Origin: a virus
UHGV virus genome: UHGV-0374175
Reading direction: 5' to 3' (one strand)
DNA: 15,745 nt
A program made the translations under genes and the position numbers. Position 1 is the first letter of the stretch; each line of letters opens with the position of its first letter. Below are positions 1 to 15,745 of the stretch, piece after piece. The notes under the pieces are model-generated. The model saw only the letters and a list, made by a program, of their open reading frames with translations, did no database searches and was not told the DNA's origin.

Positions 1-100
1 CGATCTTGCAAGTATGGGACAACTTGTGAAATTACCGACAAGAAGGGAAAGGGCCTTCCCGAGAGTGGTAAAGGAGAGGCCCTGGAAATACCCCACAGCC

Positions 101-136
101 CCGAAAAAGAGCCAGTCAGTTGCTTAACTGACTGGC
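101..136 (-). terminator. Putative rho-independent terminator on the minus strand
   Basis: Perfect 11-bp inverted repeat GCCAGTCAGTT (111-121) / AACTGACTGGC (126-136) with a 4-nt loop. On the minus-strand transcript the hairpin is followed by UCUUUUUCGG, the complement of the A-run at 104-108. Confidence 0.5.
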
Positions 137-318
137 ATTACTCCAGTGGAGAGCATTTTTACTGTATACATAACCAGTGTCAATGTATGAAATCCTACGA
201 CCATACATCTCACTGAAGCCATAATGAAGTTGGCTATTCTTTTTGCTATGTGAGCATGTAACTTTTGCGGTTAACCTGCGGCTCATTTTTATTTTAGACG
301 CAGATATAAAAACAAAAG

Positions 319-510
319 TTATCGTGAGTTTTTAGTACAGATTTTTTTGGATTTACTAATAGTTCCATCATTGCAAACGAATTTGCCATCTGAGGTACAG
401 TGAGAAACACCTCCCTTTTTCCCTGAGCAGGGATAATTTCTAGCATAGGTAGTTAGTGGGTTTAATAACAAAGAACATGACAAAACCACAAAAAATACCT
501 TACCAAGCAT
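319..510 (-). CDS. Small cysteine-rich secreted protein (signal-peptide-like N-terminus), hypothetical; likely a prophage moron
   Basis: 63-aa ORF. The N-terminus [23 protein letters not shown] has a hydrophobic core and an A-x-A-like cleavage context. The predicted mature part is about 40 aa with 6 Cys. It sits immediately downstream of the repressor gene on the same strand. Confidence 0.5.
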
Positions 511-525
511 AGTTTCCTCCCGGTA

Positions 526-1182
526 CTATTTAACATACTTGACTGTTAAACTTATAATTTTACCAATTATTTCAATGTCTTCTATCTTGCATTCGAAGGC
601 TCTGTTTCCACCCTCGACGAAGATTCTTCCACCGGGTAAACGAGTAATGTCACGGATCGTTATTTCGCCATCAATACTTATTACCCATTTACCATCACGT
701 ATATCATCAAATTCTTTATCACAAATAAATTCAGAATTGTTATCTGTGATGACAAAAGGTTTTTTAAACGTAGAGGGTAGAAATCCCTTATCAAAAATAT
801 AAAAACCGTCTTTCTGCAATGCTCCATCAGACAATAAATATTTTTCTACTTCTATAGTATTTGTATTTGCTGATGCTTGCTTTGAACCATGCCCTGTTGT
901 TAGCCAATTAAGCGAGGTGCCCGTTTCAAGGGCGCACTGGATTACCCAATCTGCTGGAAAAATATCACGCATATAGCGCGTTGCCATGGTGCTCTTAGAA
1001 ACACCTAAATGATCACAGAGAGCCTGACGAGTACCGAACCCATATGCTTCAACTAAACGTTCTATGGCTTTCTTACCGCCGCTATTGAAATCCACAAGTC
1101 CTCCAAAGAAATCCAAAATTCGTTGACAGATTCCAAAAGCGATCTTAAAGTTGAACCAGAAGTGTTCTTTTGGAGCCTTCAC
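526..1182 (-). CDS. cI: Phage 186-type CI immunity repressor
   Basis: The ORF contains ...LVEAYGFGTRQALCDHLGVSKSTMATRYMRD...CALETGTSLNWLTTGHG, which fits my recollection of the N-terminal HTH region of coliphage 186 CI. It is transcribed divergently from the apl/cII early operon. The true start may be the internal GTG at 1095, which is preceded by GGAGGA and would give about 190 aa; the longest ORF starts at ATG 1182. Confidence 0.75.
   Translation of the reverse strand: MKAPKEHFWFNFKIAFGICQRILDFFGGLVDFNSGGKKAIERLVEAYGFGTRQALCDHLGVSKSTMATRYMRDIFPADWVIQCALETGTSLNWLTTGHGSKQASANTNTIEVEKYLLSDGALQKDGFYIFDKGFLPSTFKKPFVITDNNSEFICDKEFDDIRDGKWVISIDGEITIRDITRLPGGRIFVEGGNRAFECKIEDIEIIGKIISLTVKYVK
1123..1151 (+). 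promoter_or_regulatory. Candidate sigma70 early lytic promoter (pR-like)
   Basis: TTGACA at 1123-1128, a 17-nt spacer, then TAAAGT at 1146-1151, upstream of the apl-like gene. It would lie in the intergenic region only if cI starts at the GTG at 1095. Confidence 0.35.
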
Positions 1183-1240
1183 TACTAATCACGACAAACA
1201 ACGGCTCGCCACAAGCCATATCTAGAAGGAATGTTGCCTT

Positions 1241-1444
1241 ATGACACCTAACATTTCAATTACTCTGAATACACCACATGTCACAATCGAACGTTATAGC
1301 GAACTGACTGGCCTTTCTATTGATACGATTAACGACATGTTGGCTGATGGCCGACTACCTCGTCATCGTCTTCGTAAAGACAAAAAACGTGAAAAGGTAA
1401 TGATTAACCTGGCTGCTCTGACTGTTGATGCTTTGTCTGCTTAA
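1241..1444 (+). CDS. apl: Apl/Cox-like small DNA-binding regulator (excisionase / Cro-like)
   Basis: 67-aa basic protein (…[16 protein letters not shown]…). It is the first gene of the rightward operon opposite cI and directly upstream of a CII-like gene, which is the 186 arrangement. ATG is preceded by AAGGA. Confidence 0.65.
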
Positions 1445-1508
1445 TAGACGTCTATTTTCGCAATAAGACGCTGAGTTCGATTTTGCGATAAGTTCGGAGT
1501 TGAAAACC

Positions 1509-2018
1509 ATGTTTGATTACCAAGTTTCCAAACATCCACATTTTGATGAAGCCTGTCGTGCATTCGCACTGCGCCACAATCTGGTGCAACTGGCAGAACG
1601 AGCGGGCATGAATGTGCAGATTCTGCGGAACAAGCTGAACCCAGCTCAACCTCATTTATTAACCGCACCAGAAATCTGGCTGCTTACCGATCTGACTGAA
1701 GATTCAACGTTGGTAGATGGTTTTCTGGCACAGATTCATTGTCTGCCATGTGTACCGATTAATGAGGTAGCAAAAGAGAAACTGCCACATTACGTCATGA
1801 GTGCAACCGCAGAGATCGGGCGTGTTGCTGCAGGTGCGGTATCTGGCGATGTAAAAACCAGTGCAGGTCGTCGTGATGCTATCAGCAGCATTAACTCTGT
1901 AACACGACTGATGGCGCTGGCGGCTGTTTCATTGCAGGCCCGTTTACAGGCTAATCCTGCGATGGCGAGTGCAGTTGATACCGTGACTGGCCTCGGTGCT
2001 TCATTCGGTTTGCTGTGA
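1509..2018 (+). CDS. cII: CII-like lysogeny establishment activator (186 CII family)
   Basis: [57 protein letters not shown]... matches my recollection of 186 CII. ATG at 1509 follows GGAG (1496-1499) with a 9-nt spacer; the tracked ORF start at 1500 is a TTG. Confidence 0.8.
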
Positions 2019-2025
2019 GGTGCTT

Positions 2026-2322
2026 ATGCTGACGAAAGAACCATCATTTGCATCGCTGCTGGTAAAACAAAGCCCGGCAATGCACTACGGTCACGGCTGG
2101 ATCATGGGTGAGGATGGTAAACGCTGGCATCCGTGCCGTTCACAAGATGAATTGCTGTCTGAATTGACCACGGGGAAACGGAGAAAGTCAAAATGTATGC
2201 AGCGGAAAGTGAAGTGGTTTATCAGTTTCGTTACAGAGGGGAGAGTTATTCAGTACCTGAAGATGATTTGCTCTGTTGTTATCCGTCGTTGTCGGGCGAT
2301 GGCAGTTACTTTTTCACGCTAA
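2026..2322 (+). CDS. Hypothetical early protein (position of 186 fil/dhr-region genes); 3' end uncertain
   Basis: ATG at 2026 is preceded by GAGG. The first ~60 aa look protein-like, but the 3' portion overlaps the better-looking ORF at 2193-2417 in another frame. Confidence 0.35.
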   Translation: MLTKEPSFASLLVKQSPAMHYGHGWIMGEDGKRWHPCRSQDELLSELTTGKRRKSKCMQRKVKWFISFVTEGRVIQYLKMICSVVIRRCRAMAVTFSR

Positions 2323-2417
2323 AGGATGGGACGTTTTTACGGGGAGAGCAGGTTAAAGAGACGATACGAAAAAATGTATCTCCTCTTGAACGTTACCGTA
2401 AGAACAAAGAACGATAG
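2193..2417 (+). CDS. Hypothetical small early protein
   Basis: 74-aa ORF. ATG is preceded by GGAG with a 9-nt spacer. Composition is protein-like (MYAAESEVVYQFRYRGESYSVPEDDLL...). Confidence 0.5.
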   Translation: MYAAESEVVYQFRYRGESYSVPEDDLLCCYPSLSGDGSYFFTLKDGTFLRGEQVKETIRKNVSPLERYRKNKER

Positions 2418-2439
2418 TTGCGTTTTGGGGATATGAATT

Positions 2440-2781
2440 ATGGCAATTAATGGCGCTGCGGCGACTGTTCCATTAAGCCCCGGTGAACGCCTGAATGGAC
2501 TTAATCACATTGCGGAGTTAAGGGCGAAAGTTTTTGGCCTGAATATTGAGTCAGAGCTTGAGCGGTTTATTAAAGATATGCGTGATCCACGGGATATCAA
2601 TAGCGAACAAAATAAACGGGCACTGGCTGCCATATTCTTTATGGCAAAAATTCCAGCTGAATGTCATAGCATCAGCATTAATGACCTGACCACTGACGAA
2701 AAGCGGGAGTTGATTAAAGCAATGAATCATTTTCGTGCAGTGGTGAGCTTATTTCCCAGACGGCTAACCATGCCGAATTAA
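2440..2781 (+). CDS. Hypothetical phage early protein
   Basis: 113-aa ORF with an upstream GGGGA. It sits in the early operon between cII and the replication gene. Confidence 0.6.
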   Translation: MAINGAAATVPLSPGERLNGLNHIAELRAKVFGLNIESELERFIKDMRDPRDINSEQNKRALAAIFFMAKIPAECHSISINDLTTDEKRELIKAMNHFRAVVSLFPRRLTMPN

Positions 2782-2848
2782 CCAGCTAATGAAATTAATG
2801 GCGTAAACCCGCCGGGCATCCCTTTATCTAAATTCAGGAGAATTGATT

Positions 2849-3082
2849 ATGCGTAATATTGAAACCCTCACGACTAAAACCGGACCGGATGACGCAGGGC
2901 TTAATATTTTACTGACAGAGGCTCGTCTGGAAGAACGCCGGGCAAGGGCTGAAGCAATGGCTGCCCGCCTTGATAGTCTTGCGTGTCATATCACATCCCG
3001 CCAGCTAAACCACGTCGAAGCGGCAGAACTGCTGCGTGTGACCGCTGAAGCAATCCAGAACGAAGCGCAGGAGATCCACTAA
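2849..3082 (+). CDS. Hypothetical phage early protein
   Basis: ATG at 2849 is preceded by AGGAG (2836-2840) with an 8-nt spacer; the tracked start at 2843 is a TTG. Its stop overlaps the next start, suggesting translational coupling. Confidence 0.6.
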   Translation: MRNIETLTTKTGPDDAGLNILLTEARLEERRARAEAMAARLDSLACHITSRQLNHVEAAELLRVTAEAIQNEAQEIH

Positions 3083-3309
3083 TGGCTGATGCAATGGATC
3101 TCGTACAGCAGCGCGTTGAAGAAGAACGCCAGCGCCATATCCGTGCTGCCCGTGCCAAAACACCGGGCGTGTCTCGCGTGCTTTGCATTGAATGTGAAGC
3201 GCCAATTCCGCCAGCACGCCGCCGCGCCATTCCAGGAGTGCAGCTTTGCATTACCTGTCAGGAAATCGCAGAGCTGAAAGGCAAACATTACGACGGAGGT
3301 GCTGTATGA
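3082..3309 (+). CDS. TraR/DksA-family C4 zinc-finger protein (P2 Orf82-like)
   Basis: 75 aa with CIECEAPIP...CITC, a 4-Cys zinc-finger signature. GGAG lies 8 nt upstream of the ATG. This is the conserved position upstream of the P2-family replication gene. Confidence 0.8.
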
Positions 3310-3608
3310 CAGGGGCTGTGCGTATCCATCAATTAAAAATTGCACCTAAGTATTTCAACGCTGTGGTTGCAGGTCAAAAGACGGCTGAACTTCGTAAAGA
3401 CGATCGTGGCTATAAAGTTGGTGATGTTCTTTCTCTTTGCGAATGGAAGCATGGCGTATTTACGGGTAGGGAATGGGCCGCGGTTATCTCTCATGTGCTT
3501 CCGGTTAATGACGTCATGGCAGTTTCAGAACAATGGGTGATGCTATCAATTCGCTCATTAACCCCATTAGAAGCTTTAGGATATGTTATTGCAGGAGGTG
3601 CTGTATGA
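3306..3608 (+). CDS. ASCH/PUA-like small protein (DUF3850-like), hypothetical
   Basis: ATG at 3306 overlaps the upstream stop (ATGA) and is preceded by GGAGG. The 100-aa product [33 protein letters not shown]... resembles ASCH-domain proteins often found next to phage methyltransferases. The tracked ORF start at 3246 is probably too far upstream. Confidence 0.6.
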
Positions 3609-4462
3609 GCACCATCCTGAAATGGGCGGGTAATAAAACCACCATTATGTCCGAACTGAAAAAATACCTTCCTGCTGGCACGCGACTGGTTGAACCTTTC
3701 GCGGGTTCTTGTGCTGTGATGATGGAGACGGATTACCCCAGCTATCTGGTTGCGGATATTAATCCTGATTTAATCAACCTCTATAAAAAGGTTGCTGCTG
3801 ATTGTGAGGCGTTTATATCTCGTGCCAGAGCTTTATTTGAGGAAGCAAACAGAGAGGTGGCTTATTACAACATAAGGCAGGAGTTTAATTACTCCACTGA
3901 AATTACTGATTTCATGAAAGCGGTATATTTTCTGTATCTCAATCGTCATGGTTACCGTGGGCTATGTCGCTATAACAAGAGCGGGTATTTCAACATTCCC
4001 TACGGTAATTATAAAAATCCGTATTTCCCTGAAAAAGAAATTCGCGCATTTGCAGAGAAAGCCCAGCGGGCAACGTTTATCTGCGCCAGCTTTGATGAAA
4101 CGCTGGCGATGTTGAAGGCGGGGGATGTGGTGTATTGCGATCCGCCTTATGACGGTACGTTTTCCGGCTATCACACTGATGGCTTCACTGAAGATGACCA
4201 GTATCACCTGGCATCCGTTCTTGAACATCGATCATCTGAAGGTCATCCGGTCATTGTTTCTAACAGTGACACATCCCTGATCCGTTCGCTGTATCGCAAT
4301 TTTACTCACCACTACATCAAGGCAAAACGCAGCATCGGCGTGGCAGCTGGTGAGAGTAAATCTGCAACAGAAATCATCGCTGTTTCCGGGCCGCGCTGCT
4401 GGGTAGGATTTGATCCTTCGCGTGGCGTGGATTGTTCCGTCGTGTACGGAGTGCGTGCATGA
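3605..4462 (+). CDS. dam: DNA adenine methyltransferase (Dam-like, GATC N6-adenine MTase)
   Basis: LKWAGNK and EPFAGSCAV (AdoMet binding), [16 protein letters not shown], and the catalytic DPPY in [10 protein letters not shown]; strongly collinear with E. coli Dam as I recall it. ATG at 3605 overlaps the upstream stop. Confidence 0.9.
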
Positions 4463-6873
4463 GCCATGCTGATATGAACAACTGCAGCGGCTTTAACGAG
4501 GTCGCCGCAGCATTCTCATGGAACAGCCCGAAAAAGGCCATTAACCCTTATCTGGACCCGGCGGAAGTTGCGCCGGTTTCTGCGCTTTCAAACCTGATCA
4601 CTCTGTACGCTGCCGATAACGAGCAGGAACAACTGCGCCGCGAGGCACTGAGTGATCAGGTCTGGGAGCGTTATTTCTTTAATGAATCCCGTGATCCTGT
4701 CCAACGCGAAATGGAGCAGGATAAGCTAATTAGCCGGGCAAAGCTGGCGCATGAGCAGCAGCGTTTTAATCCAGACATGGCCATTCTGGCGGACGTCAAC
4801 GCCCAGCCTTCCCATATCAGCAAGCCGCTGATGCAACGTATTAAATACTTCAGCAGCCTGGGCAGGCCAAAGGCTTATTCCCGCTATTTGCGTGAGACGA
4901 TTAAGCCATGCTTGGAACGACTGGAGCATGTACGCGACAGTCAGCTATCCACTTCTTTTCGCTTTATGGCAAGCCATGAAGGGCTGGACGGCCTGCTGAT
5001 CCTGCCTGAAATGAGTCAGGATCAGGTGAAACGCCTGTCCACCTTGGTAGCTGCGCATATGAGCATGTGCCTTGATACAGCTTGTGGCGATTTGTATGCC
5101 ACCGATGATGTTACGCCAGAAGAAATCCGCAAGACATGGGAAAAGGTGGCAGCGGAAACCCTGCGTCTGGATGTTATCCCGCCTGCGTTTGAGCAACTCT
5201 GTCGGAAAAGAAACCGCCGTAAACCCGTGCCTTATGAACTCATTCCGGGTTCGCTGGCGCGTATGTTATGCGCCGACTGGTGGTATCGGAAATTATGGAA
5301 GATGCGTTGCGAATGGCGGGAAGAGCAGTTGCGTGCTGTTTGCCTGGTCAGCAAAAAAGCATCTCCCTATGTCAGCTATGAAGCTGTGATGCATAAACGT
5401 GAGCAGCGCCGTAAGTCGCTGGAGTTTTTCCGTTCTCATGAACTGGTGAACGAAGACGGCGACACGCTGGATATGGAAGACGTGGTAAACGCCAGCAGCA
5501 GCAACCCTGCGCATCGCCGCAATGAGATGATGGCCTGTGTTAAAGGTCTGGAGCTTATCGCGGAAATGCGTGGTGACTGCGCCGTTTTCTACACCATCAC
5601 CTGTCCGTCACGTTTCCATTCCACGCTAAATAACGGCAGGCCCAACCCGACCTGGACAAATGCGACGGTAAGACAAAGCAGTGATTATCTGGTCGGTATG
5701 TTTGCTGCATTTCGTAAGGCGATGCACAAAGCCGGATTACGCTGGTATGGCGTGCGGGTGGCTGAGCCGCATCATGACGGTACAGTTCACTGGCACCTGT
5801 TGTGTTTTATGCGCAAAAAAGATCGCCGCGCCATTACTGCTTTGTTGCGTAAGTTTGCCATTCGTGAAGACCGCGAGGAGCTGGGTAATAACACGGAACC
5901 ACGCTTTAAGTCTGAGCTGATAAACCCGCGCAAAGGTACGCCAACAAGCTACATCGCGAAATACATCAGTAAGAACATTGACGGGCGTGGTCTGGCTGGC
6001 GAGATCAGCAAGGAAACGGGTAAATCCCTGCGTGATAACGCCGAATACGTTAATGCCTGGGCGTCTCTGCATCGTGTTCAGCAATTCCGCTTCTTTGGCA
6101 TTCCGGGGCGTCAGGCTTACCGTGAACTGCGATTGCTGGCTGGTCAGGCGGCAAGGCAACAGGGTGACAAAAAAGCAGGTGCGCCGGTACTGGATAACCC
6201 GCGTCTTGATGCCATTCTGGCTGCTGCGGATGCTGGTTGTTTTGCCACCTACATCATGAAGCAGGGTGGCGTACTGGTTCCCCGTAAATATCACCTCATC
6301 AGAACCGCTTATGAAATCAACGAAGAGCCGACCGCCTATGGCGATCACGGCATTCGTATTTATGGCATCTGGTCACCCATTGCAGAGGGCAAGATCTGCA
6401 CTCATGCAGTGAAGTGGAAAATGGTTCGTAAAGCCGTTGACGTTCAGGAGGCGGCAGCCGACCAGGGCGCTTGCGCCCCTTGGACTCGTGGCAATAACTG
6501 TCCCCTTGCTGAAAATTTGAACCAACAGGAGAAAGATAAATCAGCTGATGGGGACACCAGAACGGACATTACCCGCATGGATGACAAGGAGTTGCACGAT
6601 TACCTGCACAGTATGAGCAAAAAAGAGCGCCGGGAACTGGCAGCAAGGTTACGCCAGGTGAAGCCGAAAAGGCGTAAAGACTACAAACAGCGAATTACAG
6701 ATCATCAGCATCAGCAGCTCGTCTATGAACTGAAGTCCAGAGGATTTGATGGCAGCGAGAAAGAGGTCGATTTACTCCTTCGCGGTGGCAGTCTTCCGTC
6801 AGGAGCAGGCCTGCGTATCTTCTATCGGAACCAGCGTTTGCAGGAAGATGATAAGTGGCGGAACCTGTATTAA
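4459..6873 (+). CDS. A: Replication initiation endonuclease (P2 gpA / 186 A family, rolling-circle initiator)
   Basis: 804-aa ORF. ATG at 4459 overlaps the Dam stop (ATGA) and follows GGAG. It contains [11 protein letters not shown] (HUH-type metal-binding motif) and YIAKYISKN (catalytic tyrosine region), typical of the P2 A family. Position after the TraR-like ORF matches P2/186. Confidence 0.9.
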
Positions 6874-6942
6874 TTACGCGAGTTAACAATTCGTGCTCTT
6901 AATAATACCAGGCATATCAGGCTGATGAACGTAAAAAAACGT

Positions 6943-7000
6943 TTTACATCAGTAAGATTATTATATACTGTAAATATAAACATTGGTTATATATACAGTA
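6943..7000 (+). promoter_or_regulatory. Candidate SOS-regulated promoter (p95-like) with LexA-box-like operator(s)
   Basis: TTTACA at 6943-6948 and a -10-like TATACT at 6964-6969. Overlapping this is tACTGTaaatataaACATtg (CTGT-N8-ACAT, 16 of 20 matches to the LexA consensus TACTGTATATATATACAGTA). A second, weaker half-site ends in ACAG at 6995-6998. All lie directly upstream of the tum-like/DinI-like pair. Confidence 0.4.
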
Positions 7001-7025
7001 TTACTTTGGTGTCATAGGAGGAAAG

Positions 7026-7214
7026 ATGCAGGACTATTTTTTGGAGTCTTTGAAGCTCCAGCGCATTGATTTTTTTCTTAAGCTTGTAGCGGCTAGTGAG
7101 TGTAGTGATGAAGAGAAGGGGCTGGCTTTGCAGTGGGTTTCTGAATTGACTGATGAACTCATGGCAAAAATCAGAACCCACGAATACAACCGCTCAATGG
7201 ATGTCGTTAACTGA
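7026..7214 (+). CDS. Hypothetical small protein, possible Tum (antirepressor) N-terminal-like module
   Basis: 62-aa ORF with a strong GGAGG RBS, located between the replication gene and a DinI-like ORF downstream of a LexA-box-like site. This is the position of tum in 186. Confidence 0.5.
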   Translation: MQDYFLESLKLQRIDFFLKLVAASECSDEEKGLALQWVSELTDELMAKIRTHEYNRSMDVVN

Positions 7215-7225
7215 GGGAGTAATTT

Positions 7226-7459
7226 ATGCGCATTGAAATAATGATCGATAAAGAGCAGAAGATTAGCCAGTCTACCCTGGAGGCCCTTGAATCCGAACTT
7301 TACCGCAATCTGCGCCCCCTGTATCCCAAAACGGTAATTCGTATCCGTAAAGGTAGCTCTAACGGTGTGGAACTGACTGGACTGCAACTGGACGAAGAAA
7401 GGAAGCAAGTGATGAAAATTATGCAGAAGGTGTGGGAAGACGACAGCTGGCTGCATTAA
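7226..7459 (+). CDS. DinI-family protein (Tum C-terminal-like / SOS-regulated)
   Basis: MRIEIMIDKEQKISQSTLEALESELYRNLRPLYP...KQVMKIMQKVWEDDSW is collinear with E. coli DinI as I recall it (MRIEVTIAK...ELSRR...ILQETWESADDW). GGGAG RBS. Confidence 0.8.
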   Translation: MRIEIMIDKEQKISQSTLEALESELYRNLRPLYPKTVIRIRKGSSNGVELTGLQLDEERKQVMKIMQKVWEDDSWLH

Positions 7460-7603
7460 GAAACGTTGCTGGCGTCTGAACTTGTTTCTGGCGTCAGCAA
7501 GGTTGAACAACGAGCCCTTGTGAGGCGTTAGCTCTGTAGTGCATGTCTATGCCGCATGAGATCGCATGATCGTTTGAGGATCGTTTTTGCTAAGGCCCGC
7601 CAG

Positions 7604-7628
7604 AACTGGCGGGCTTTTGCGTAGATCA
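7604..7628 (+). terminator. Rho-independent terminator
   Basis: GGCCCGCCAG (7604-7613), 2-nt loop, CTGGCGGGC (7616-7624), followed by TTTT (7625-7628). Confidence 0.7.
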
Positions 7629-7663
7629 TGCAGGTGCATGAAAACCACTACATAAAGCGGGCA

Positions 7664-7682
7664 GGCGTGGCGGGGATACGAG
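7664..7682. other. cos-like motif (possible cohesive-end site of the P2/186 family)
   Basis: GGCGTGGCGGGGA at 7664-7676 matches the first 13 nt of the P2/186 19-nt cohesive end as I recall it (GGCGAGGCGGGGAAAGCAC in P2); the remaining 6 nt diverge. It lies between the replication-side genes and the portal side, where the cos of a P2-family prophage should be. Confidence 0.3.
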
Positions 7683-7690
7683 CGCGCGCC

Positions 7691-7719
7691 TTGCCTTATA
7701 TCTATTTGTTCATTAAAAT
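7691..7719 (+). promoter_or_regulatory. Candidate sigma70 promoter for the retron ncRNA/operon
   Basis: TTGCCT at 7691-7696, 17-nt spacer, TAAAAT at 7714-7719, at the left edge of the AT-rich island and upstream of the palindrome and RT gene. Confidence 0.4.
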
Positions 7720-7725
7720 CATTAT

Positions 7726-7925
7726 GCTCTTTAGTGTAGGAACATTGGTTCCAGCCGGGTGATTAGCCAGGCTTAAATTTATTGTCCGGTTTAGGGTTGC
7801 GAAAGACACAGATTTCTCCTTCGCATCCCTGCCCGGGGCAGATATGCGAAGGAGAAATCTGTGTCTTTCGCTGTCTTTAGTGAAGAGTCAAAGCGCTATG
7901 TAAAGTTGCATAGCGCTTTGGTTTT
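7726..7925 (+). ncRNA. Putative retron msr-msd non-coding RNA (boundaries approximate)
   Basis: Non-coding stretch immediately upstream of a retron-type RT. It contains a 28-bp perfect inverted repeat (the likely msd template stem) and a second 12-bp stem-loop before the RT start. I could not identify a convincing a1/a2 inverted-repeat pair or the branching G by eye, so the ends are not defined. Confidence 0.45.
7799..7871. repeat. 28-bp perfect inverted repeat with 17-nt spacer (probable msd stem-loop)
   Basis: GCGAAAGACACAGATTTCTCCTTCGCAT (7799-7826) is the exact reverse complement of ATGCGAAGGAGAAATCTGTGTCTTTCGC (7844-7871). The spacer itself contains the palindrome CTGCCC-G-GGGCAG. Confidence 0.9.
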
Positions 7926-7937
7926 AAGAGGGGTTAT

Positions 7938-8873
7938 ATGCAACTAACTTCTAAAATTATCAGTAAGTTTAATTATAATAGATTAGCTTTCCAATTACTT
8001 TTAAATGAGGCCCCCAAAAAATATAAAGTTTATTATATTCCTAAACGTGGCGCAGGTTTTCGGGTGATAGCTCAGCCGACAAAGGAACTAAAAAACGTAC
8101 AGAGATTTATAGTATCTTTGCTACAGCCAAAGCTGCCTGTTCATCATAAGGCAATGGCATATGAATATAAAAAAAGTATTAAAGATAATGCATTGTTGCA
8201 TAAAGATAATAATTATATTCTTAAAATGGATTTTCAGAACTTCTTTAACAAAATTAAACCTGATATATTTTTCTCGAAACTTGAGAACACAGGGCTGAAA
8301 TTGGATTCATTTGATGAGAACACCCTACGTAATTTGCTTTTTTGGCGTCCGGGAAAAAAGAGAAGTACAACGTTGATATTAAGTGTAGGGGCGCCAAGCT
8401 CACCATTTATTAGTAATTTTGTTATGTATGACTTTGACAAGAGTCTTGATGATTGGTGCCGTAACAATGGTATCACTTATTCAAGGTATGCAGATGATAT
8501 AACTTTTTCAACTAATATTAAGGATATATTGTGCAGGGTTCCTAAGGTGGTAAAAAAAATGTTGTCGCTCCATGTTCCCGGTCTATCAATCAATGAATCT
8601 AAAACAATTTTTACATCGATGGCTCATAATCGGCACGTGACTGGTGTAACACTTACACCTCAGGGCAATTTATCAATTGGTCGCGATCGTAAAAGGATGC
8701 TGTTTGCAAAGATTCATAAATATTCTTTGGGACTCTTATCTTCCGAAGAAATAAATAAAACCAAAGGGATGATTGCGTTTGCAAATTATTTGGAGGGTGA
8801 TTTTTTATTAAGGTTACAAAAAAAATATGGTTGTGAGTTAATAACTAAGTTCCTGATGGAAGGAAACAAATAA
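7938..8873 (+). CDS. ret: Retron-type reverse transcriptase
   Basis: 311 aa. RT active site YADD (YSRYADDITFS), retron-typical motif NRHVTGVTL (NAxxH / VTG), and RT motifs such as VGAPSSPFISN. GAGGGG RBS. Preceded by structured non-coding DNA. Confidence 0.92.
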   Translation: MQLTSKIISKFNYNRLAFQLLLNEAPKKYKVYYIPKRGAGFRVIAQPTKELKNVQRFIVSLLQPKLPVHHKAMAYEYKKSIKDNALLHKDNNYILKMDFQNFFNKIKPDIFFSKLENTGLKLDSFDENTLRNLLFWRPGKKRSTTLILSVGAPSSPFISNFVMYDFDKSLDDWCRNNGITYSRYADDITFSTNIKDILCRVPKVVKKMLSLHVPGLSINESKTIFTSMAHNRHVTGVTLTPQGNLSIGRDRKRMLFAKIHKYSLGLLSSEEINKTKGMIAFANYLEGDFLLRLQKKYGCELITKFLMEGNK

Positions 8874-10507
8874 TGATAAATAAAATGAATTTAGAGACTT
8901 GCTATGTTGATTTTTTAGAGTTGGAATCACATGTGATAAACGAGGATTATTTGAAGGAGTCTGTTGAGCTTCAAAAGCTAATATCTACTTTAAATGAGAG
9001 TAAGTTTCATTTAAATAAAATAGGTATACATGATTTTAAACGGATAAGAGAACTACAGATTTCCTTAGAAGATGATTTGACTGTTTTTGTCGGGGATAAC
9101 GGATTCGGTAAAAGCACTATTTTGGATGCAATAGCAATTGTTTTGAGTTGGTTGAGATCAAATATTGAAAAGGAGAGTAAGCCTGGTACTTATATTAAAA
9201 GCCATGAAGTTAATAACTCTGTTGATGTTGAGTATGCATCAATTGATGCAAATATAAAACTTAAGGACTTTAATACCAGTATTTTGATTACTAAAGCGAA
9301 AGAGGGGGCATATTATTCTAGAAATAATGAATTGTTGGAGGTAAAAAAACTTGCAAGTATTTATAGACTTGTGAATAAATATGTTGATAATGCAAGCTTG
9401 CCTTTGATGGCATATTATTCTATTGCGCGTTCTTATATAGGCGGTGGGGTTGATAGGAAAAGAAAAAATGCTAAAACTAAAACTGTATGGTCAAAATTCG
9501 ATGTGTATGATGAAATCGAGTTTGACAGAAATGATTTTACCGATTTTTTTCAATGGCTTGTATTTCTTCATAACAGAGCTTCACAAGAGAAATTGAGTGA
9601 GTCACAAACGACAATCAATGCGTTATTTTCAGATATTCAAAGTTTGAAAGCAACATTAACTCAACTATCTGCGATTGATAATATTGATTCAACAGTTATA
9701 AAAGGTTTAGAGCTTTCGCTTAAAGAAAAATTGAACTACATGAAATCTCTGCAATCAGGAGAACATAAGTTTAATAATGCAGTATCACTTTATGATAGTG
9801 TTATAAATACCATTCTAAAGTTCTTGCCTGAATTTCAGTGGATTAAGCTTGTTTATGGTGATGATGATTATAAGATTATCCTTAAAAAAGGAGAGGTTGA
9901 ATTAGATGTTCAACAGTTGTCTCAAGGTGAGAAAACTATATTTACTTTAGTTGGTGATTTGGCTCGACGTTTAATTTTACTTAATCCAAATTTATCTAAT
10001 CCTCTATTGGGATATGGGATTGTTTTAATTGATGAAATTGATTTGCATTTGCATCCGCAATGGCAACAGACAATTATTGAGCGTTTGACATCTACATTCC
10101 CAAATGTTCAATTTGTAGTTACTACCCATAGCCCACAGGTTTTATCCACTGTTAGCTCTCGTTCAGTGCGTATTCTACAGGAAGTGGAAGTAGATGGTGT
10201 TAATGATTTGATAGTGTCTCACCCCGACTATCAAATAAAAGGTGTTAGTAATCAGGATGCACTTTTATATGGAATGAGAACTGATCCTATACCCTCTACT
10301 AAAGAAAATGGTTGGCTTGAAGAATATAAAAAATTGGTTGAGCTTAATCGTTATAGCAGTGACGAGGCTCTTTTGTTAAGAGAAAAAGTTATTAAACATT
10401 TCGGATTAGACCATCCTTTAGTTCAAGAGTGTGATGATCTTATATCTGTTTTGGAGTTCAAAAATAAGATAAATCAGCACTTTTCTGGAAGTAAGGATGT
10501 AAAATGA
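8873..10507 (+). CDS. ABC/SMC-like ATPase (Septu PtuA-like retron effector)
   Basis: 544 aa. Walker A GDNGFGKST, ABC signature-like LSQGEKTIF, Walker B VLIDEIDLHLHP, and a long helical middle region. Its start overlaps the RT stop (TAATG). Confidence 0.85.
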   Translation: MINKMNLETCYVDFLELESHVINEDYLKESVELQKLISTLNESKFHLNKIGIHDFKRIRELQISLEDDLTVFVGDNGFGKSTILDAIAIVLSWLRSNIEKESKPGTYIKSHEVNNSVDVEYASIDANIKLKDFNTSILITKAKEGAYYSRNNELLEVKKLASIYRLVNKYVDNASLPLMAYYSIARSYIGGGVDRKRKNAKTKTVWSKFDVYDEIEFDRNDFTDFFQWLVFLHNRASQEKLSESQTTINALFSDIQSLKATLTQLSAIDNIDSTVIKGLELSLKEKLNYMKSLQSGEHKFNNAVSLYDSVINTILKFLPEFQWIKLVYGDDDYKIILKKGEVELDVQQLSQGEKTIFTLVGDLARRLILLNPNLSNPLLGYGIVLIDEIDLHLHPQWQQTIIERLTSTFPNVQFVVTTHSPQVLSTVSSRSVRILQEVEVDGVNDLIVSHPDYQIKGVSNQDALLYGMRTDPIPSTKENGWLEEYKKLVELNRYSSDEALLLREKVIKHFGLDHPLVQECDDLISVLEFKNKINQHFSGSKDVK

Positions 10508-11187
10508 AATATCTATCTAGGCAAATGCCAGGGCCTTCCGTTCTTAATAAATTTGACTATAGGAGGGATGATTGGAATTCCCTATCATCAAATGATAAAA
10601 AAGAAATATGGGAAGAAATAATAAAAATGCAAGGTAAATTATGTGCTTATTGCGAGAAAAAAATAGAGCATCATAAAAGTGGTGACAAAAATAAAGTTGA
10701 GAGGCATATTGAGCATTTTTACAGGAAAAGTTATTACAAAAATTTAACTTTCGAGTGGTCTAATTTGTTTGGCTCATGTGGTGAGCCGCAAAGGTGTGGG
10801 TTTTATAAGGATAAGCAAAAATATAACGATGATGATTTAATTAAAGCTGATAGACAAAATCCAGATGTTTTTTTCCATTTTTTGGAAAATGGTGATGTTC
10901 ATATTAGAGAAGGCTTGAATGAGAAAGAACACAAAATGGCAGAGGTTACGTTAAGAGTATTTAACTTAAACCCGTCCTCAGGAGGAGTCAAGGCGGAAAG
11001 AAGACGTGCAATAGAATTAAGCATGACATTAATAAAGGAACTGGTCGGATGTGCATCTCAGCTTATTGAATCAGGATGTGAAATTGAAGATGTTAGATCT
11101 ATGGTCTTTGATGAGTTTAAAAAGAATGTAAAAGATAGATGCTTTACCACTGCGATAAAGCATGTTTTTGAGAATAGAATGCCTTAA
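10504..11187 (+). CDS. HNH endonuclease (Septu PtuB-like retron effector)
   Basis: 227 aa with CAYCEKKIEHH...ERHIEHFYRKS...NLFGSCGEPQRCGFY (Cys pairs plus His-rich HNH core). Its start overlaps the ATPase stop (ATGA). Confidence 0.85.
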   Translation: MKYLSRQMPGPSVLNKFDYRRDDWNSLSSNDKKEIWEEIIKMQGKLCAYCEKKIEHHKSGDKNKVERHIEHFYRKSYYKNLTFEWSNLFGSCGEPQRCGFYKDKQKYNDDDLIKADRQNPDVFFHFLENGDVHIREGLNEKEHKMAEVTLRVFNLNPSSGGVKAERRRAIELSMTLIKELVGCASQLIESGCEIEDVRSMVFDEFKKNVKDRCFTTAIKHVFENRMP

Positions 11188-11210
11188 AGGTTAGAGGGAT
11201 GTATATATAA

Positions 11211-12242
11211 TTAATCTATATTATATTCTGAGAAATTGATAATATGCATCCCTATCCACTGATTAAATTCATGGATTTTTTTTTGTAGAGGTACTAATTC
11301 ATTTGTCACAAAAACCTTACTAGCTTTCTCCACATCCCCAAACCCCCCAACATTATTCGGCATAATCCCCATCATTTGCGGCGGCACACGGTGTGCCGCC
11401 ATCATGTCGTCCCGGCTCACGTTCTTGATATTCAGAAATTCATCCTTCGCTGCAACTTCTGACAACGGGATGATCTGAAGCCCGTCCTTTTTGCCGTTAG
11501 GCGAGTACATAAACAAGTTACGGAAGTTGCCCGGTCCTTTGGCGTTTTTCATCGCGTTGCGGAGGTTGTTCACATCCTCCTGGTTCTGCGCGGCGTCAGT
11601 CATATACATGATGAAGCCTGCATGACTGCCGTTAATGTAATACTTGCGGCGGAACAGCGTGGCGGACTCGTTGAGCAGGGCTGACGGAATGGCAGAAAGA
11701 TAACCGGGCAGGCCGTAGATCTCCTGGTTGATGTCCGGTTCCATCAGATGAAAAATGCTGCCTTTCGCGAACTGATACGGCTGGGTTGTCATACCGTATT
11801 GCACAAACCAGTAGGTATCCAGGTCTAACCCGCGTCGGGTGTATTTTGCCAGCGCAGGCTCAAGGGCGATAACTTCACCGAATCGGTTCGTGCGTTTCTC
11901 CAGGTAGGCGTTACCAAATACCAGATAGTCCAGCACAAAACGCGAAAAAGCCTGCTGGCTGAGAAGCGGGTGAGGGATGTAGGTGCTGGTCAGAATGTTG
12001 CATTTCACTGCAATTGGTGAACTGTGATGCACGGCAGCGCGGAAGGTGCGCGCCAGTCCGTCAAAGCTGACGGGAGGCTCATACCAGCGATCTGTCTGTA
12101 CGCATTCCACATAGTCCAGCAGTTCGCGGCGGTCAAGTACTGGAATGGGATCACCGAAGCTGAATGCTTCGGCTGAAGCTTGGCTTTTATGCTGGATCTG
12201 GTTCGTCGCCGCAGCGCGTTTTTTTTTACTCTTTCCCATCAA
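11211..12242 (-). CDS. Q: Portal (capsid portal vertex) protein, P2 gpQ family
   Basis: 343-aa ORF matching my recollection of P2 Q in length and arrangement. It is convergent with the cargo island, and its start overlaps the stop of the upstream terminase gene (ATGA), as in the P2 P-Q operon. Confidence 0.85.
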   Translation of the reverse strand: MMGKSKKKRAAATNQIQHKSQASAEAFSFGDPIPVLDRRELLDYVECVQTDRWYEPPVSFDGLARTFRAAVHHSSPIAVKCNILTSTYIPHPLLSQQAFSRFVLDYLVFGNAYLEKRTNRFGEVIALEPALAKYTRRGLDLDTYWFVQYGMTTQPYQFAKGSIFHLMEPDINQEIYGLPGYLSAIPSALLNESATLFRRKYYINGSHAGFIMYMTDAAQNQEDVNNLRNAMKNAKGPGNFRNLFMYSPNGKKDGLQIIPLSEVAAKDEFLNIKNVSRDDMMAAHRVPPQMMGIMPNNVGGFGDVEKASKVFVTNELVPLQKKIHEFNQWIGMHIINFSEYNID

Positions 12243-13081
12243 AAAATCTCCACAATATTGCTGGTATTGGCGGACTCGCCCTGCAGCGGTTCGTTAAACA
12301 GTGCGTGCATTGTTGCCCAGGCCAGATCGGCATGGCTGGCTTCTTCACTGCGGCTTGCTTCATAGGTCGGGCGGTTGCCGCTGGCGGTGGTTGCGCGACG
12401 GATTGCCATAAATGACTGCGCTATGTCGGTGTGTCCGGCGTCAAACTCCAGACGACGGTGACTGATAATGTCGTAGGCCTTGAGTACCAGGGCGTTTTTA
12501 ACGTTGGGGTTGTAGACAAACTCCCGGACGGCTGGAAAAAACGCTTTCACGTTTTCATAAACCCCGTGACCGACACCCGTCGAGTCGATGCCGATATAGG
12601 TCACGTTGTACTGTTCGGTCAGTTTTTTGATGGCGTCAGCCTGGGCGCGGAAGTCCATCCCGCGCCACTGGTGACGCTCAAGAATGCGGAACTTACCGCC
12701 CGGCACGGCTGGCGGTGCCACCACCACGCATCCGGCGCTGTCGCCGTTTTGCGTACCTTTTGCCGGGTCATAACCGATCCACACCTCGCGCCAGCCAAAC
12801 GGGCGCAGGGCCAGTGCATGAAAGTCGGTCCAGACTTCCCAGCTGTCCACCATGCACGCCTGCAGCTCGCTGAGCGGGAACACGGACGCGAGATCGTCCA
12901 CGAACTCGCACATCAGCAGGTTCTGGTATTCGTCCGGGCTGTACTCCATGCGCAACTGGTCAAGGTCGAACAGGTTACAGCCGCCGCGCACCGCATCTTC
13001 CACGGTGACTATCTGGCGGTATTGCCCGTCTGCGCACAGCAGGCCGGGGGCCAGATTGCTATGGGACAGGTCGATGTCCAC
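12239..13081 (-). pseudogene. P: Terminase large (ATPase) subunit, P2 gpP family: C-terminal fragment only
   Basis: The 280-aa ORF (reported start is a GTG) is directly upstream of and coupled to Q. The frame is open upstream to a stop at 13172-13174 with no ATG/GTG/TTG start in between, so the N-terminal ATPase half is absent. The upstream side abuts a baseplate-J fragment on the other strand. Confidence 0.75.
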
Positions 13082-13120
13082 CTTGTCGGCTTTGTTGCGT
13101 CCACGGTTGAACAGCGCACC

Positions 13121-13711
13121 GGACCAGAACGGATACCGCCCGTTGCGGCTGTGATGGAAAGTGATGAAGCGTTACGCCTGCGTGTGCCTGCAGCCTTTGA
13201 AGGGCTTTCTGTTGCTGGGCCAACTGCCGCTTATGAGTTTCATGCACGAAGCGCCGACGGTCGGGTGGCGGATGCCAGTGCAACCAGTCCGGCACCTGCA
13301 GAGGTGGTGCTTACGGTCCTAAGCCGTGAAGGCGACGGAACAGCAGAAAAAGACCTGCTGGATGTGGTGGAGAAAGCCCTGAACAGTGAGAACGTCCGCC
13401 CGGTGGCTGACCGTCTGACGGTTCGCAGCGCGGAAATCATCCCGTACCGCGTGGAAGCCACCATTTTTCTCTATCCGGGGCCGGAAGCAGAGCCGGTAAT
13501 GGCAGCGGCAAAAGCCAGCCTGCAGAGGTACATCGCCAGTCAGACGCGGCTTGGTCGGGATATTCGCCGTAGCGCCATTTTTGCCGCGCTGCATGTTGAG
13601 GGTGTTCAGCGTGTGGAACTGGCTTCCCCGCTGGCGGATGTGGTCATGAACAAAACGCAGGCGGCATCATGTACGCAGTGGAGCGTGACCAACGGGGGTA
13701 CGGATGAATAG
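13121..13711 (+). pseudogene. J: Baseplate assembly protein J (P2 gpJ family): C-terminal fragment
   Basis: ...IPPVAAVMESDEALRLRVPAAFEGLSVAGPTAAYEFHARSADGRVAD...GRDIRRSAIFAALHVEGVQRVELASPLADVV... matches the C-terminal two-thirds of P2 J as I recall it. The N-terminal part is missing. The 5' portion of the tracked ORF (12431-13120) is antisense to the terminase fragment and is not J. Confidence 0.75.
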
Positions 13712-14309
13712 TCTGCTGCCACCGGGTTCAACGCCACTGGAGCGCCGACTGGCGCAAACCTGCAGCGGGATTTCTGATCTGCAGGTGCCGCTGCGTGACT
13801 TGTGGAATCCGGCAACCTGTCCGGTCAGTTTCCTGCCTTATCTCGCCTGGGCGTTCTCTGTGGATCGCTGGGACGAGGGCTGGACAGAAAGCGTCAAACG
13901 TCAGGTGGTGAAGGATGCTTTTTATATTCATCAGCATAAAGGAACCACCAGTGCCGTGCGGCGGGTGGTGGAGCCGTTCGGCTTTCTGATCCGCATTATT
14001 GAGTGGTGGCAGACCGGAGAGGCACCGGGCACGTTTCGTCTGGATATCGGCGTGCAGGACCAGGGCATCACTGAAGATACCTATCTGGAACTTGAGCGAC
14101 TGATAAGCGATGCCAAACCATGTAGCCGTCACATGATCGGCATGTCCATCAACCTGCAGACCAGCGGCCCGCACTGGGTGGGAGCCGCCAGCTATCTTGG
14201 CGAAGAAATCACGATCTATCCGTATATCAACGAAACAATTATTTCCGGCGGCACCGCGCATGAAGGCGGGGCGGTCCATGTTATTGACACAATGAGAGTG
14301 AATCCATGA
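13704..14309 (+). CDS. I: Tail/baseplate protein I (P2 gpI family)
   Basis: 201-aa ORF immediately after J, with its stop overlapping the start of the H-like gene (ATGA). This is the J-I-H order of P2-family tail operons. Confidence 0.8.
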   Translation: MNSLLPPGSTPLERRLAQTCSGISDLQVPLRDLWNPATCPVSFLPYLAWAFSVDRWDEGWTESVKRQVVKDAFYIHQHKGTTSAVRRVVEPFGFLIRIIEWWQTGEAPGTFRLDIGVQDQGITEDTYLELERLISDAKPCSRHMIGMSINLQTSGPHWVGAASYLGEEITIYPYINETIISGGTAHEGGAVHVIDTMRVNP

Positions 14310-15607
14310 GCACAAAATTTTATACCCTGCTGACGGATATTGGCGCGGCGAAACTTGCCAGCGCCGCCGCGCTCGGTGTGCCGCTAAAAATTACCCATAT
14401 GGCGGTGGGCGATGGCGGCGGAGTATTGCCGACGCCGGACGCAAAGCAGACTGCACTGGTAAATGAGAAACGCCGGGCTGCGCTGAATATGCTCTATATC
14501 GACCCGCAGAACAGCAGCCAGATTATTGCTGAACAGGTGATCCCTGAAAACGAGGGCGGTTGGTGGATACGTGAAGTGGGCCTGTTTGATGAGTCAGGGG
14601 CATTGATTGCCGTGGGGAACTGCCCGGAAAGCTATAAACCGCAACTGGCTGAAGGCAGCGGGCGCACCCAGACCGTGCGCATGGTGCTGATTACCAGCAG
14701 CAAGGAAAATATCACCCTGAAAATCGATCCTGCTGTAGTGCTGGCAACCCGCAAGTATGTGGATGACAAGGTACTGGAGCTGAAGGTGTATGTGGATGAC
14801 CTGATGGCAAAACACCTTGCCGCACAGGACCCACATTCACAGTATGCACAGAAAGAAAGTCCGACGTTTACCGGGAAACCCAAAGCGCCAACGCCAGCAG
14901 CAGGGAATAACACCACGCAGATTGCGACCACCGCGTTTGTTCAGGCGGCACTGATAGCCCTTATTAATGGTGCGCCAGCCACACTGGATACGCTGAAAGA
15001 AATTGCCGCTGCCATTAATAATGACCCGAAATTCAGTACCACCATTAACAATGCGCTGGCACTGAAAGCGCCGTTGTCGAGTCCGGCACTCACCGGAACG
15101 CCAACAGCCCCCACGGCGGCGCAGTCGGTCAACAATACACAGATTGCCACTACGGCTTTTGTGAAATCGGCGATTGCGGCAATGGTGGGTTCTGCACCTG
15201 CGGCACTGGATACACTGAACGAACTGGCGGCGGCGCTGGGGAATGACCCGAACTTTGCCACGACAATGCTTAATGCACTGGCAGGTAAACAACCGCTGGA
15301 CAATACGCTGACTAATTTGAGTGGAAAGGATGTAGCTGGTCTTCTCACATACCTTGGTTTGGGAGAAGGTTCGGCATTACCCGTTGGTGTGCCTGTTCCG
15401 TGGCCTTCAGCCACACCGCCTACTGGCTGGCTGAAATGCAACGGTGCGGCTTTTTCTGCTGAAGAATACCCGGAACTGGCAAAGGTTTATCCGACAAATA
15501 AATTGCCTGATTTACGCGGTGAATTTATTCGTGGCTGGGATGACGGACGTGGAGTGGATGCCGGGCGACAATTATTATCTTCACAGGGGGATGCAATAAG
15601 AAATATT
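14306..15607 (+). pseudogene. H: Tail fibre protein H (P2 gpH family), N-terminal ~434 codons, truncated by IS1
   Basis: N-terminus MSTKFYTLLTDIGAAKLASA... and internal repeats (NNTQIATTAFV... twice) are typical of P2-type tail fibres. The reading frame runs into IS1 sequence from 15608, so the C-terminal receptor-binding part is missing from this locus. Confidence 0.8.
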
Positions 15608-15745
15608 GGTAATGACTCCAACTTATTGATAGTGTTTTATGTTCAGATAATGCCCGATGACTTTGTCATGCAGCTCCACCGATTTTGAGAACGACAGCGA
15701 CTTCCGTCCCAGCCGTGCCAGGTGCTGCCTCAGATTCAGGTTATG
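15608..15745 (-). mobile_element. IS1 insertion sequence, terminal part (continues beyond the window)
   Basis: 15608-15745 is the reverse complement of the IS1 end as I recall it (…CATAACCTGAATCTGAGGCAGCACCTGGCACGGCTGGGACGGAAGTCGCTGTCGTTCTCAAAATCGGTGGAGCTGCATGACAAAGTCATCGGGCATTATCTGAACATAAAACACTATCAATAAGTTGGAGTCATTACC), including the terminal inverted repeat GGTAATGACTCC. Confidence 0.9.
15623..15745 (-). CDS. insB: IS1 transposase InsB, C-terminal part (partial at window edge)
   Basis: The minus-strand frame encodes ...[41 protein letters not shown], with the stop codon complementary to 15623-15625. Confidence 0.8.

Follow-up and report, generated by a model that had tools for sequence, protein, structure and literature searches.

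A terminase–baseplate deletion junction in a retron-carrying 186-like prophage and a terminase endpoint shared with related remnants

The viral genome UHGV-0374175, a DNA stretch of 15,745 nucleotides (nt) that is referred to as the window in its full length, holds part of a 186-like (P2-family) prophage of Escherichia coli which carries a retron defence operon and in which the C-terminal part of the large terminase gene P adjoins the C-terminal part of the baseplate gene J. Judged by alignment to intact relatives, this P-J junction reflects one internal, collinear deletion, about 8.1 kb long when measured against the closest intact relative, in a prophage of the site between rcdA and ybjL. 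Its P-side endpoint, P nt 870/871 (a slash marks a join or a nick throughout), is common to 12 distinct deletions including that of the window and is exact to the nucleotide in all of them. The window junction is thus an ordinary deletion on a recurrent, nucleotide-precise hotspot, and it is this recurrent endpoint, which goes beyond an ordinary decay junction, that is worth following. As a probable but by no means secure explanation, a strand end would recur at P nt 870/871 and be joined via short homology in a collinear deletion, followed by selection.

The terminase–baseplate junction and the genes lost

The join was placed by BLAST against two intact references, namely L002 (strain 98208) and L003 (isolate SC475). 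Positions 3594-13135 of the window are collinear with L002 14871-24410 (97.9%) and L003 19737-29276 (98.3%), and the sequence from 13136 onward continues collinearly with L002 from 32553 (95.6%) and L003 from 38367 (94.4%), the join being 13135/13136. Compared with the L002 genes (P, 23514-25280, 1767 nt; J, 32220-33128), the N-terminal 290 codons of P, i.e., its ATPase half, and the N-terminal 111 codons of J are deleted. The missing segment amounts to 8,142 bp versus L002 and 9,090 bp versus L003, the latter carrying an extra SIR2 gene between S and V. Besides the P ATPase half and the J N-terminus, the genes lost are the scaffold O, the capsid N, the small terminase M, L, X, holin, endolysin, LysA/B/C, R, S, V and W, with head completion, lysis cassette and tail completion among them. 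In the P remnant, the Pfam family Terminase_6C is complete and Terminase_6N is represented by profile positions 143-214 only. Likewise, the J remnant covers only profile positions 112-254 of 255 of Baseplate_J, and its truncated product is without Baseplate_J_N, a family listed for full-length J. A functional gpP (ATPase plus RNase H-like nuclease domain) and a functional J (N-terminal, middle and C-terminal domains) are therefore both missing.

An earlier sequence-only reading of this DNA had proposed that an internal deletion brought the two C-terminal fragments together, and BLAST, collinearity and Pfam agree in supporting this. The loss of the intervening genes was recognized correctly, whereas their span, given as roughly 10 kb, has to be reduced to the values above; the two remnants do meet, not within about 50 bp but in direct contact and with no spacer. 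It was also right that the P frame has no start codon between its upstream stop codon, which lies in antisense J sequence, and the P remnant, since the first possible start (GTG) lies inside the remnant (translation of 13180-12239) and gives an open reading frame (ORF) of 280 aa. Gene callers have called exactly this 280-aa product in many assemblies. On the opposite strand, the fusion made a 426-aa open frame in which antisense P runs in frame into the J remnant. Its antisense part (12431-13135) matched no Pfam family, and the frame is probably not a gene but an accident of GC-rich antisense frames.

Versus L002 and L003 the join appears blunt (..GGATA/CCGCCC), intact P reading ..GGATA/AGCAC. 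The best-matching intact J allele, that of strain 17MR471, is 100% identical to the window over 13133-13195 and reads GCTATA/CCGCCCG. As this allele shares ATA, the crossover lies somewhere within the 3 nt 13133-13135, and a 3-nt microhomology at the join is likely from the allele comparison. The alignment to intact relatives thus gives a definite breakpoint position and a candidate ATA. No foreign DNA, insertion sequence (IS) or recombinase site was found at the window join, and the junction is one of RecA-independent, microhomology-mediated illegitimate recombination.

Neither the 5,426 complete E. coli genomes nor the species representatives of GTDB contain the exact junction, which would suit an assembly chimera. 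Nevertheless, the metagenome contig L004 from ENA, found by looking up the truncated J product, spans the join at 99.82% identity over window 12223-13897 with three single-nucleotide polymorphisms (SNPs), and a Logan contig returned by the same look-up is identical to window 13152-14139, past the join. An independent assembly with few SNPs, together with a shared stretch of just 3 nt at the join, by which a graph assembler would not be misled, rules out a chimera for all practical purposes; moreover, a sister junction at this P nucleotide occurs in TW14425, a complete genome. The assembly artefact that the earlier reading had allowed for has therefore not come true.

A terminase endpoint shared by twelve deletions

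The fixed endpoint reads /TATCCGTTCTGG on the P coding strand and ...CCAGAACGGATA/ on the window plus strand. A look-up of the 280-aa remnant ORF gave many contigs that carry this ORF behind varying upstream genes. In five of them (L007, L008, L010, L012, L015), P homology begins exactly at P nt 871 according to alignment to intact P, and in L009 the break lies 25 nt further in. A metagenome scan with the 32 nt just inside P nt 871 yielded 102 contigs. Among all loci collected up to that point, 105 copies are intact and three more junctions (L021, L027, L084) came to light, all at P nt 871. IMG/VR added L262, L283 and L327 at the same nucleotide, the last of which shares its junction with the complete genome TW14425 (L119). 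Among the GTDB representatives only an intact Pantoea allele was present, and a description of the hotspot was not found in the literature searched.

All 12 junctions are simple collinear deletions of 5.7-18.5 kb, with distal ends spread over 13 kb (L002 30094-42862; Table 1). Each distal end lies at or beyond lysB, so that holin and endolysin are removed in every case, and the retained side comprises immunity, replication, cos and cargo. The same attR flank occurs in every locus with enough context, and loci with context agree in the direction in which their defence cargo is transcribed. The replication protein A is full length in most remnants with context and truncated in L010. The defence cargo differs among remnants whose cargo region is visible, as do the P alleles among the junction copies compared (93-100% identity). 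Neither an IS nor foreign DNA was found at any of the 12 junctions, and no insertion was found at P nt 870/871 in about 270 intact P copies.

Table 1. Deletions that end at P nt 871, with the gene reached by the distal end and the first nucleotides of the distal partner
Locus	Distal end	Deletion	Distal partner starts
L008	lysB	5.7 kb	G/A, then ATCCG
L119 / L327 (TW14425)	V	7.4 kb	TA (L119)
Window / L004	J	8.1 kb	TAT (window)
L007	H	10.7 kb	T or TA
L010	FII	13.4 kb	TA
L027	E	13.8 kb	TATCC
L015, L262, L012	T	about 15.9 kb	TA (L015, L262); T (L012)
L283	6 nt before U	17.2 kb	TATCC
L021, L084	D	18.1 and 18.5 kb	TAT (L021); TA (L084)

How strongly the truncations concentrate on one nucleotide is best read from the metagenome scan, which could show any P truncation upstream of nt 871. 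Here, P homology starts at 26, 336, 556, 562, 702, 704, 813 and, three times, at 871, and the simulated probability that at least 3 of 10 truncations fall on one nucleotide is 1.2e-4 (about ten truncated P copies). Over the 318 loci of the combined metagenome and viral sets, 6 of 20 P starts lie at 871, including the three metagenome ones, the other 14 being scattered; four further copies end inside P at 920-1642. In the complete genomes, 100-nt segments from each side of the site were located, the downstream one at 946 versus 1,198 places and more polymorphic, so that truncated-copy counts from the two sides are not comparable.

The starts of the distal partners were read from allele-matched intact sequences. 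TA, TAT or TATCC begins 9 or 10 of the 12 distal sites, and a conservative count of TA (8/12) against a TA background of 3% in the late region gives a binomial p = 3e-10, with homology left of the break at only one junction of the 12. From this TA bias and the rare left homology it follows that the P sequence always starts at nt 871, with homology of variable length reaching into the retained side. Deletions that truncate P elsewhere also feature 2-3 nt of microhomology. Accordingly, the general process is ordinary microhomology-mediated illegitimate recombination, and its peculiarity here lies in one nucleotide being used again and again.

Further breaks were noted in the same material. A minor recurrent P site lies at 339/340 (L125 and L120, the latter from the complete genome NZ_OU342919, with L090 2 nt away) and another at ~552 (L105, L128), again with different distal partners. 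Several P breaks are situated 1-4 nt 5' of CCG on the coding strand (TATCCG, AACCG, ACCGG, ATACCG, TCAACCG). Distal endpoints of different remnants form clusters as well, with pairs 2, 10, 13 and 20 nt apart at L002 ~37783/37796 (tube gene), ~40306/40315 (T), ~42467-42469 (D) and ~42841-42862 (D); endpoint clustering is thus not confined to the terminase gene. Besides deletions, the same TGG-to-TAG nonsense mutation at P codon ~276 occurs in the otherwise intact prophages L006 and L013, and the otherwise intact L011 has a P frameshift within a run of A residues some 45 nt upstream of the hotspot. These point lesions are other routes to terminase inactivation.

Possible origins of the recurrent endpoint

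Two properties of known deletion hotspots are found here, namely one fixed and one variable end and short homology between the ends; a demonstrable arrest or nick at P nt 870/871 (Ter/Tus, origin nick, stable hairpin) could not be recognized from the sequence. In the explanation preferred here, a strand end would form repeatedly at P nt 870/871, most likely as a 3' end ...GGATA-3' on the window plus strand, produced by arrest or by run-off at a template nick. This 3' end would pair with a short complementary stretch (TA/TATCC) downstream and be extended or ligated, the intervening DNA being looped out. Presumably, as in the standard K-12 gene order, the replication fork runs from rcdA to ybjL, the plus strand having leading-strand sense and the deleted DNA lying ahead of the fork. 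Selection would then keep only those deletions through which lysis cassette and structural genes are lost but immunity, replication, cos and defence cargo are spared. Selection for the loss of lysis would also explain why the distal ends all lie at or beyond lysB. As a speculative extension, P nt 870/871 might be a built-in fragile site at which a specific nick or replication block triggers the one-directional loss of head and lysis genes. Active prophages would thereby become harmless bearers of defence systems. Domestication in this common E. coli phage family would in that case be partly sequence-programmed instead of random decay, and the responsible nickase or blocking factor might belong to the phage, the host or a defence system.

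Several observations weigh against a recurrent strand end at this position. No sequence feature that would explain it was found at P nt 870/871: folding of 171 nt gave a z of -0.2, like shuffled sequence, notable inverted repeats are missing, and neither Chi nor Ter was seen at the hotspot by eye. A simple template switch would hardly be expected to span 5-18 kb, and the L008 partner is mismatched at its first nucleotide in all sampled parental alleles. Moreover, 5 of the 12 junctions come from the look-up of the remnant ORF, which is biased because it could return only breaks within about 120 nt (codons ~270-309). The reverse polarity, with the upstream part of P kept, was searched in IMG/VR only, and the outcome of 0 versus 3 of the observed polarity involves too few cases to decide. 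The one-sidedness may thus partly result from sampling and selection. Finally, all examples stem from one att site in one orientation, which bears on the dependence on fork direction.

Instead of a passive strand end, a site-specific enzyme could cut P nt 870/871 and connect it to TA sites of loose similarity, much as a transposase, an HUH nickase or a recombinase acting on pseudo-sites would do. Possible enzymes are the replication protein A, terminase, integrase and tail-fibre invertase of the prophage, or a nickase of the host or of a defence system. In the 12 events a nucleotide-exact end is paired with a variable but TA-biased one (often TAW), the distal ends cluster in the pairs mentioned above, protein A is mostly intact, and the cos bottom strand contains TATCC, all of which would suit an enzyme. 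Its candidate targets do not match, though. The ori of the phage gpA nickase, located at 6466-6501 from the P2 ori annotation (nick at 29892) and protein alignment, reads GCGCCCCTTG/GACTCGTGGCAATAAC and is unlike the hotspot on both strands, the nick sites being GCGCCTCG/GAGTCC in P2 and GCGCCCCTTG/GACTCG in this phage. An integrase pseudo-site is equally without support, as the att core AACAAAAAACCCAT has no similarity to the hotspot. In a pseudo-cos, the TATCC of the cos bottom strand would be 4 nt from the nick and out of register, and the 19-nt overhang matches at chance level. For the invertase, judged by gix/hix sites, the crossover would fall about 12 nt further in. The longer homologies (TATCC twice, xATCCG) suit annealing rather than recognition. 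Altogether, an enzyme acting at this site appears unlikely.

Other motifs were compared with the hotspot by eye. A gix/hix-like invertase site, a DnaA box, LexA and type I/IIS restriction motifs did not fit in register, nor did a XerCD/dif-like arm (GGTGCGC) 16 nt inside P nt 871. Concerning defence nucleases, the site of the Gabija nickase GajA from B. cereus, AATAACCCGGATATT with the nick CC/GGG, does not fit, and Rpn nucleases have no sequence specificity.

A double-strand break near the site, repaired by RecBCD-dependent alternative end joining with the P end protected and the other end resected, would be in line with the 0-5 nt of microhomology and the one-sided loss of kilobases that are generally known from alternative end joining in E. 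coli. Conceivable sources of the break are a related phage's homing endonuclease, terminase genes being generally known as frequent targets of such enzymes, a restriction enzyme or CRISPR self-targeting. However, resection normally erodes both ends, yet in the 12 events the P side is preserved down to the single nucleotide; the intact P copies show no insertion at the site, and a correctly oriented Chi was not seen by eye beside the end. This repair route is hence considered quite improbable.

A hotspot would be unnecessary if the junctions were one-off products of illegitimate recombination that share their endpoint by common descent or sampling bias. The restricted look-up behind five of the junctions and the clonal spread of remnants, L327 and TW14425 having one junction, can be read in this sense. 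In opposition to descent, the 12 deletions have twelve different distal partners, differing P alleles and different visible defence cargo, and the conversion of one junction into another would again need an end exactly at nt 871. As regards sampling, the less biased scans still put on this nucleotide 3 of about 10 truncations in the metagenomes and 6 of 20 in the combined set. Common origin or bias as the whole explanation is accordingly very improbable. Still less credible is a site-preferring IS that inserted in P and was later lost with a variable flank (e.g., by events of the IS-excision-enhancer type), which would fit the general knowledge that deletions flanking an IS pair a fixed with a variable end but left no IS sequence at the 12 junctions and has no counterpart inserted at nt 870/871 among the roughly 270 intact-looking P copies.

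The element, its defence cargo and known systems

Over most of its length, the window matches annotated E. coli prophages of the 186-like type at 96-98% DNA identity. These relatives sit between rcdA and ybjL in many E. coli genomes and feature the att core given above. The window itself contains neither attL nor attR, and tail genes beyond 15745 are outside its view. Positions 1-140 do not align to relatives that match from 141 onward and are probably a different integrase-proximal segment. In a search with the whole window, parts of it matched 5,290 of the 5,426 E. coli genomes, including 13,526 plasmid places, which means that some segment is shared widely outside this prophage family. Of the hallmarks of the P2/186 family, the 186-type CI, CII (CP76) and the rolling-circle protein A are all present according to Pfam and the DNA identity of the relatives, and so is the 19-nt cos followed by the leftward genes Q (portal) and P (terminase remnant). 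A complete morphogenesis and lysis module is missing, as nothing is left of the genes from P nt 870 to J nt 334 (Table 2). The cos site is untouched by the P-J deletion, and its right end reads GGATACGAG here versus GAAAGCAC in P2 and GAAAGCAT in 186. A LexA-box-like sequence, CTGTAAATATAAACAT, with one mismatch lies at 6968-6983, behind gene A and ahead of the 62-aa ORF and the DinI-like gene; such a placement fits an SOS-controlled antirepressor module as in phage 186, and the total number of LexA-box-like matches in the window is not above chance.

Table 2. Features of the window (positions 1 to 15,745)
Feature	Position	Strand	Basis or remark
CI repressor	526-1182	-	Pfam Phage_CI_repr and Phage_CI_C
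CII	1500-2018	+	Pfam Phage_CP76
Dam methylase	3533-4462	+	Family search; full length
Replication protein A (rolling-circle)	4432-6873	+	Pfam Phage_GPA, 427 bits
62-aa ORF	7026-7214	+	
DinI-like gene	7226-7459	+	Family search; full length
cos cohesive-end sequence GGCGTGGCGGGGATACGAG (19 nt)	7664-7682	+	Match to P2/186 cos consensus, chance expectation 0.01; P2 cos annotation
Retron Ec78-type defence operon (RT-PtuA-PtuB)	7938-11187	+	Convergent with Q-P
Retron reverse transcriptase (RT)	7938-8873	+	NCBIfam NF038233 retron_St85_RT, 321 bits, cut-off 235
PtuA ATPase	8873-10507	+	NCBIfam 471 bits, equivalog cut-off 500; 509/544 residues align
PtuB HNH	10504-11187	+	NCBIfam 160 bits, cut-off 150
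Portal gene Q, full length	11211-12242	-	NCBIfam portal_PBSX, 362 bits; directly downstream of P remnant
Large terminase P remnant	12239-13135	-	298 C-terminal codons and stop (P nt 871-1767 of 1767); L002 23514-24410
Fusion-made 426-aa open frame	12431-13711	+	Antisense P in frame into J remnant; probably not a gene
First possible start (GTG) in P frame after stop	13079-13081	-	Inside P remnant; 280-aa ORF
Likely junction microhomology ATA (TAT on P coding strand)	13133-13135		Intact P versus 17MR471 J allele
Baseplate J remnant	13136-13711	+	J nt 334-909, codons 112-302 plus stop; L002 32553-33128
Stop codon closing P frame upstream of junction	13172-13174	-	In antisense J sequence
Baseplate/tail gene I	13704-14309	+	Pfam Tail_P2_I; kept downstream of junction
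Tail fibre gene H	14306-15688	+	Pfam Phage_tail_fib and Collar; kept downstream of junction

The cargo comprises the protein-coding parts expected of an Ec78-type retron, i.e., a reverse transcriptase of the retron clade with PtuA and PtuB directly downstream, and relatives carry the RT-PtuA-PtuB annotation, too. A search of the window with Rfam revealed no RNA family up to the gathering score, including the presumed msr/msd region (7780-7937); in this region, an inverted repeat (7799-7871) is located just upstream of the retron reverse transcriptase. A defence hotspot next to cos in the P2 family has been described (PMC9122126), and this is where the retron of the window is located.

Judged by gene content, the element is a defective remnant that would be unable to build heads or lyse its host on its own. 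That no particles can be formed had been anticipated from the sequence alone, and the absence of all genes between the breakpoints points in the same direction. Immunity, replication, SOS-antirepressor and retron genes had been described as intact, and family searches confirm the full length of CI, CII, protein A, the DinI-like gene and the retron genes, to which Dam can be added. The prophage may be retained for the functions it carries. Taken by itself, the junction means that a retron-carrying prophage is defective, which is useful for annotation and for the planning of induction experiments. If a specific terminase lesion holds true, it would offer a testable mechanism for the repeated conversion of common E. 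coli prophages into immobile anti-phage carriers.

The closest known systems are the retron-carrying 186-like prophages of E. coli (Ec67 / Ec86; Ec78 with PtuAB), which have the same backbone of CI, CII, Fil, Dam, A, DinI-like gene, cos, cargo, Q and P. The cargo position between cos and portal is the same, as is the RT-PtuA-PtuB operon of FORC_082, 98208 and SC475, whereas the copy in the window is without 8.1 kb of morphogenesis and lysis genes. Dodd and Egan reportedly noted in 1996 that the retrons of 186-like prophages take the place of DNA beside cos. FORC_082 (L001, 17515-19046) carries the same retron Ec78 system in a different remnant, with a cut at nt 1234 of P and with truncated tail fibre (H) and sheath genes. 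The different deletions in FORC_082 and the window indicate independent decay, which took place more than once in this lineage. In addition, FORC_082 features a TIR-domain gene upstream of V, a place where other relatives carry SIR2, TIR or DUF6216.

With respect to the mode of deletion, hotspots at rolling-circle nick sites (M13, pC194) and at terB are said to have been described by Michel and Ehrlich in 1986 and by Bierne, Ehrlich and Michel in 1991. They resemble the present case in their fixed end, their variable end and the few nt of homology at the join, but differ in that no origin, nick site or Ter can be recognized at P nt 870/871. If the strand end in P is real, a natural chromosomal example would be added to the few known site-specific hotspots of illegitimate recombination. 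Cryptic or "domesticated" prophages, in turn, are alike in the loss of lysis and structural genes, in the maintenance of immunity and accessory genes and in the short microhomology of their junctions. Their decay is usually treated as random, whereas here one endpoint has been reused to the nucleotide in 12 independent remnants.

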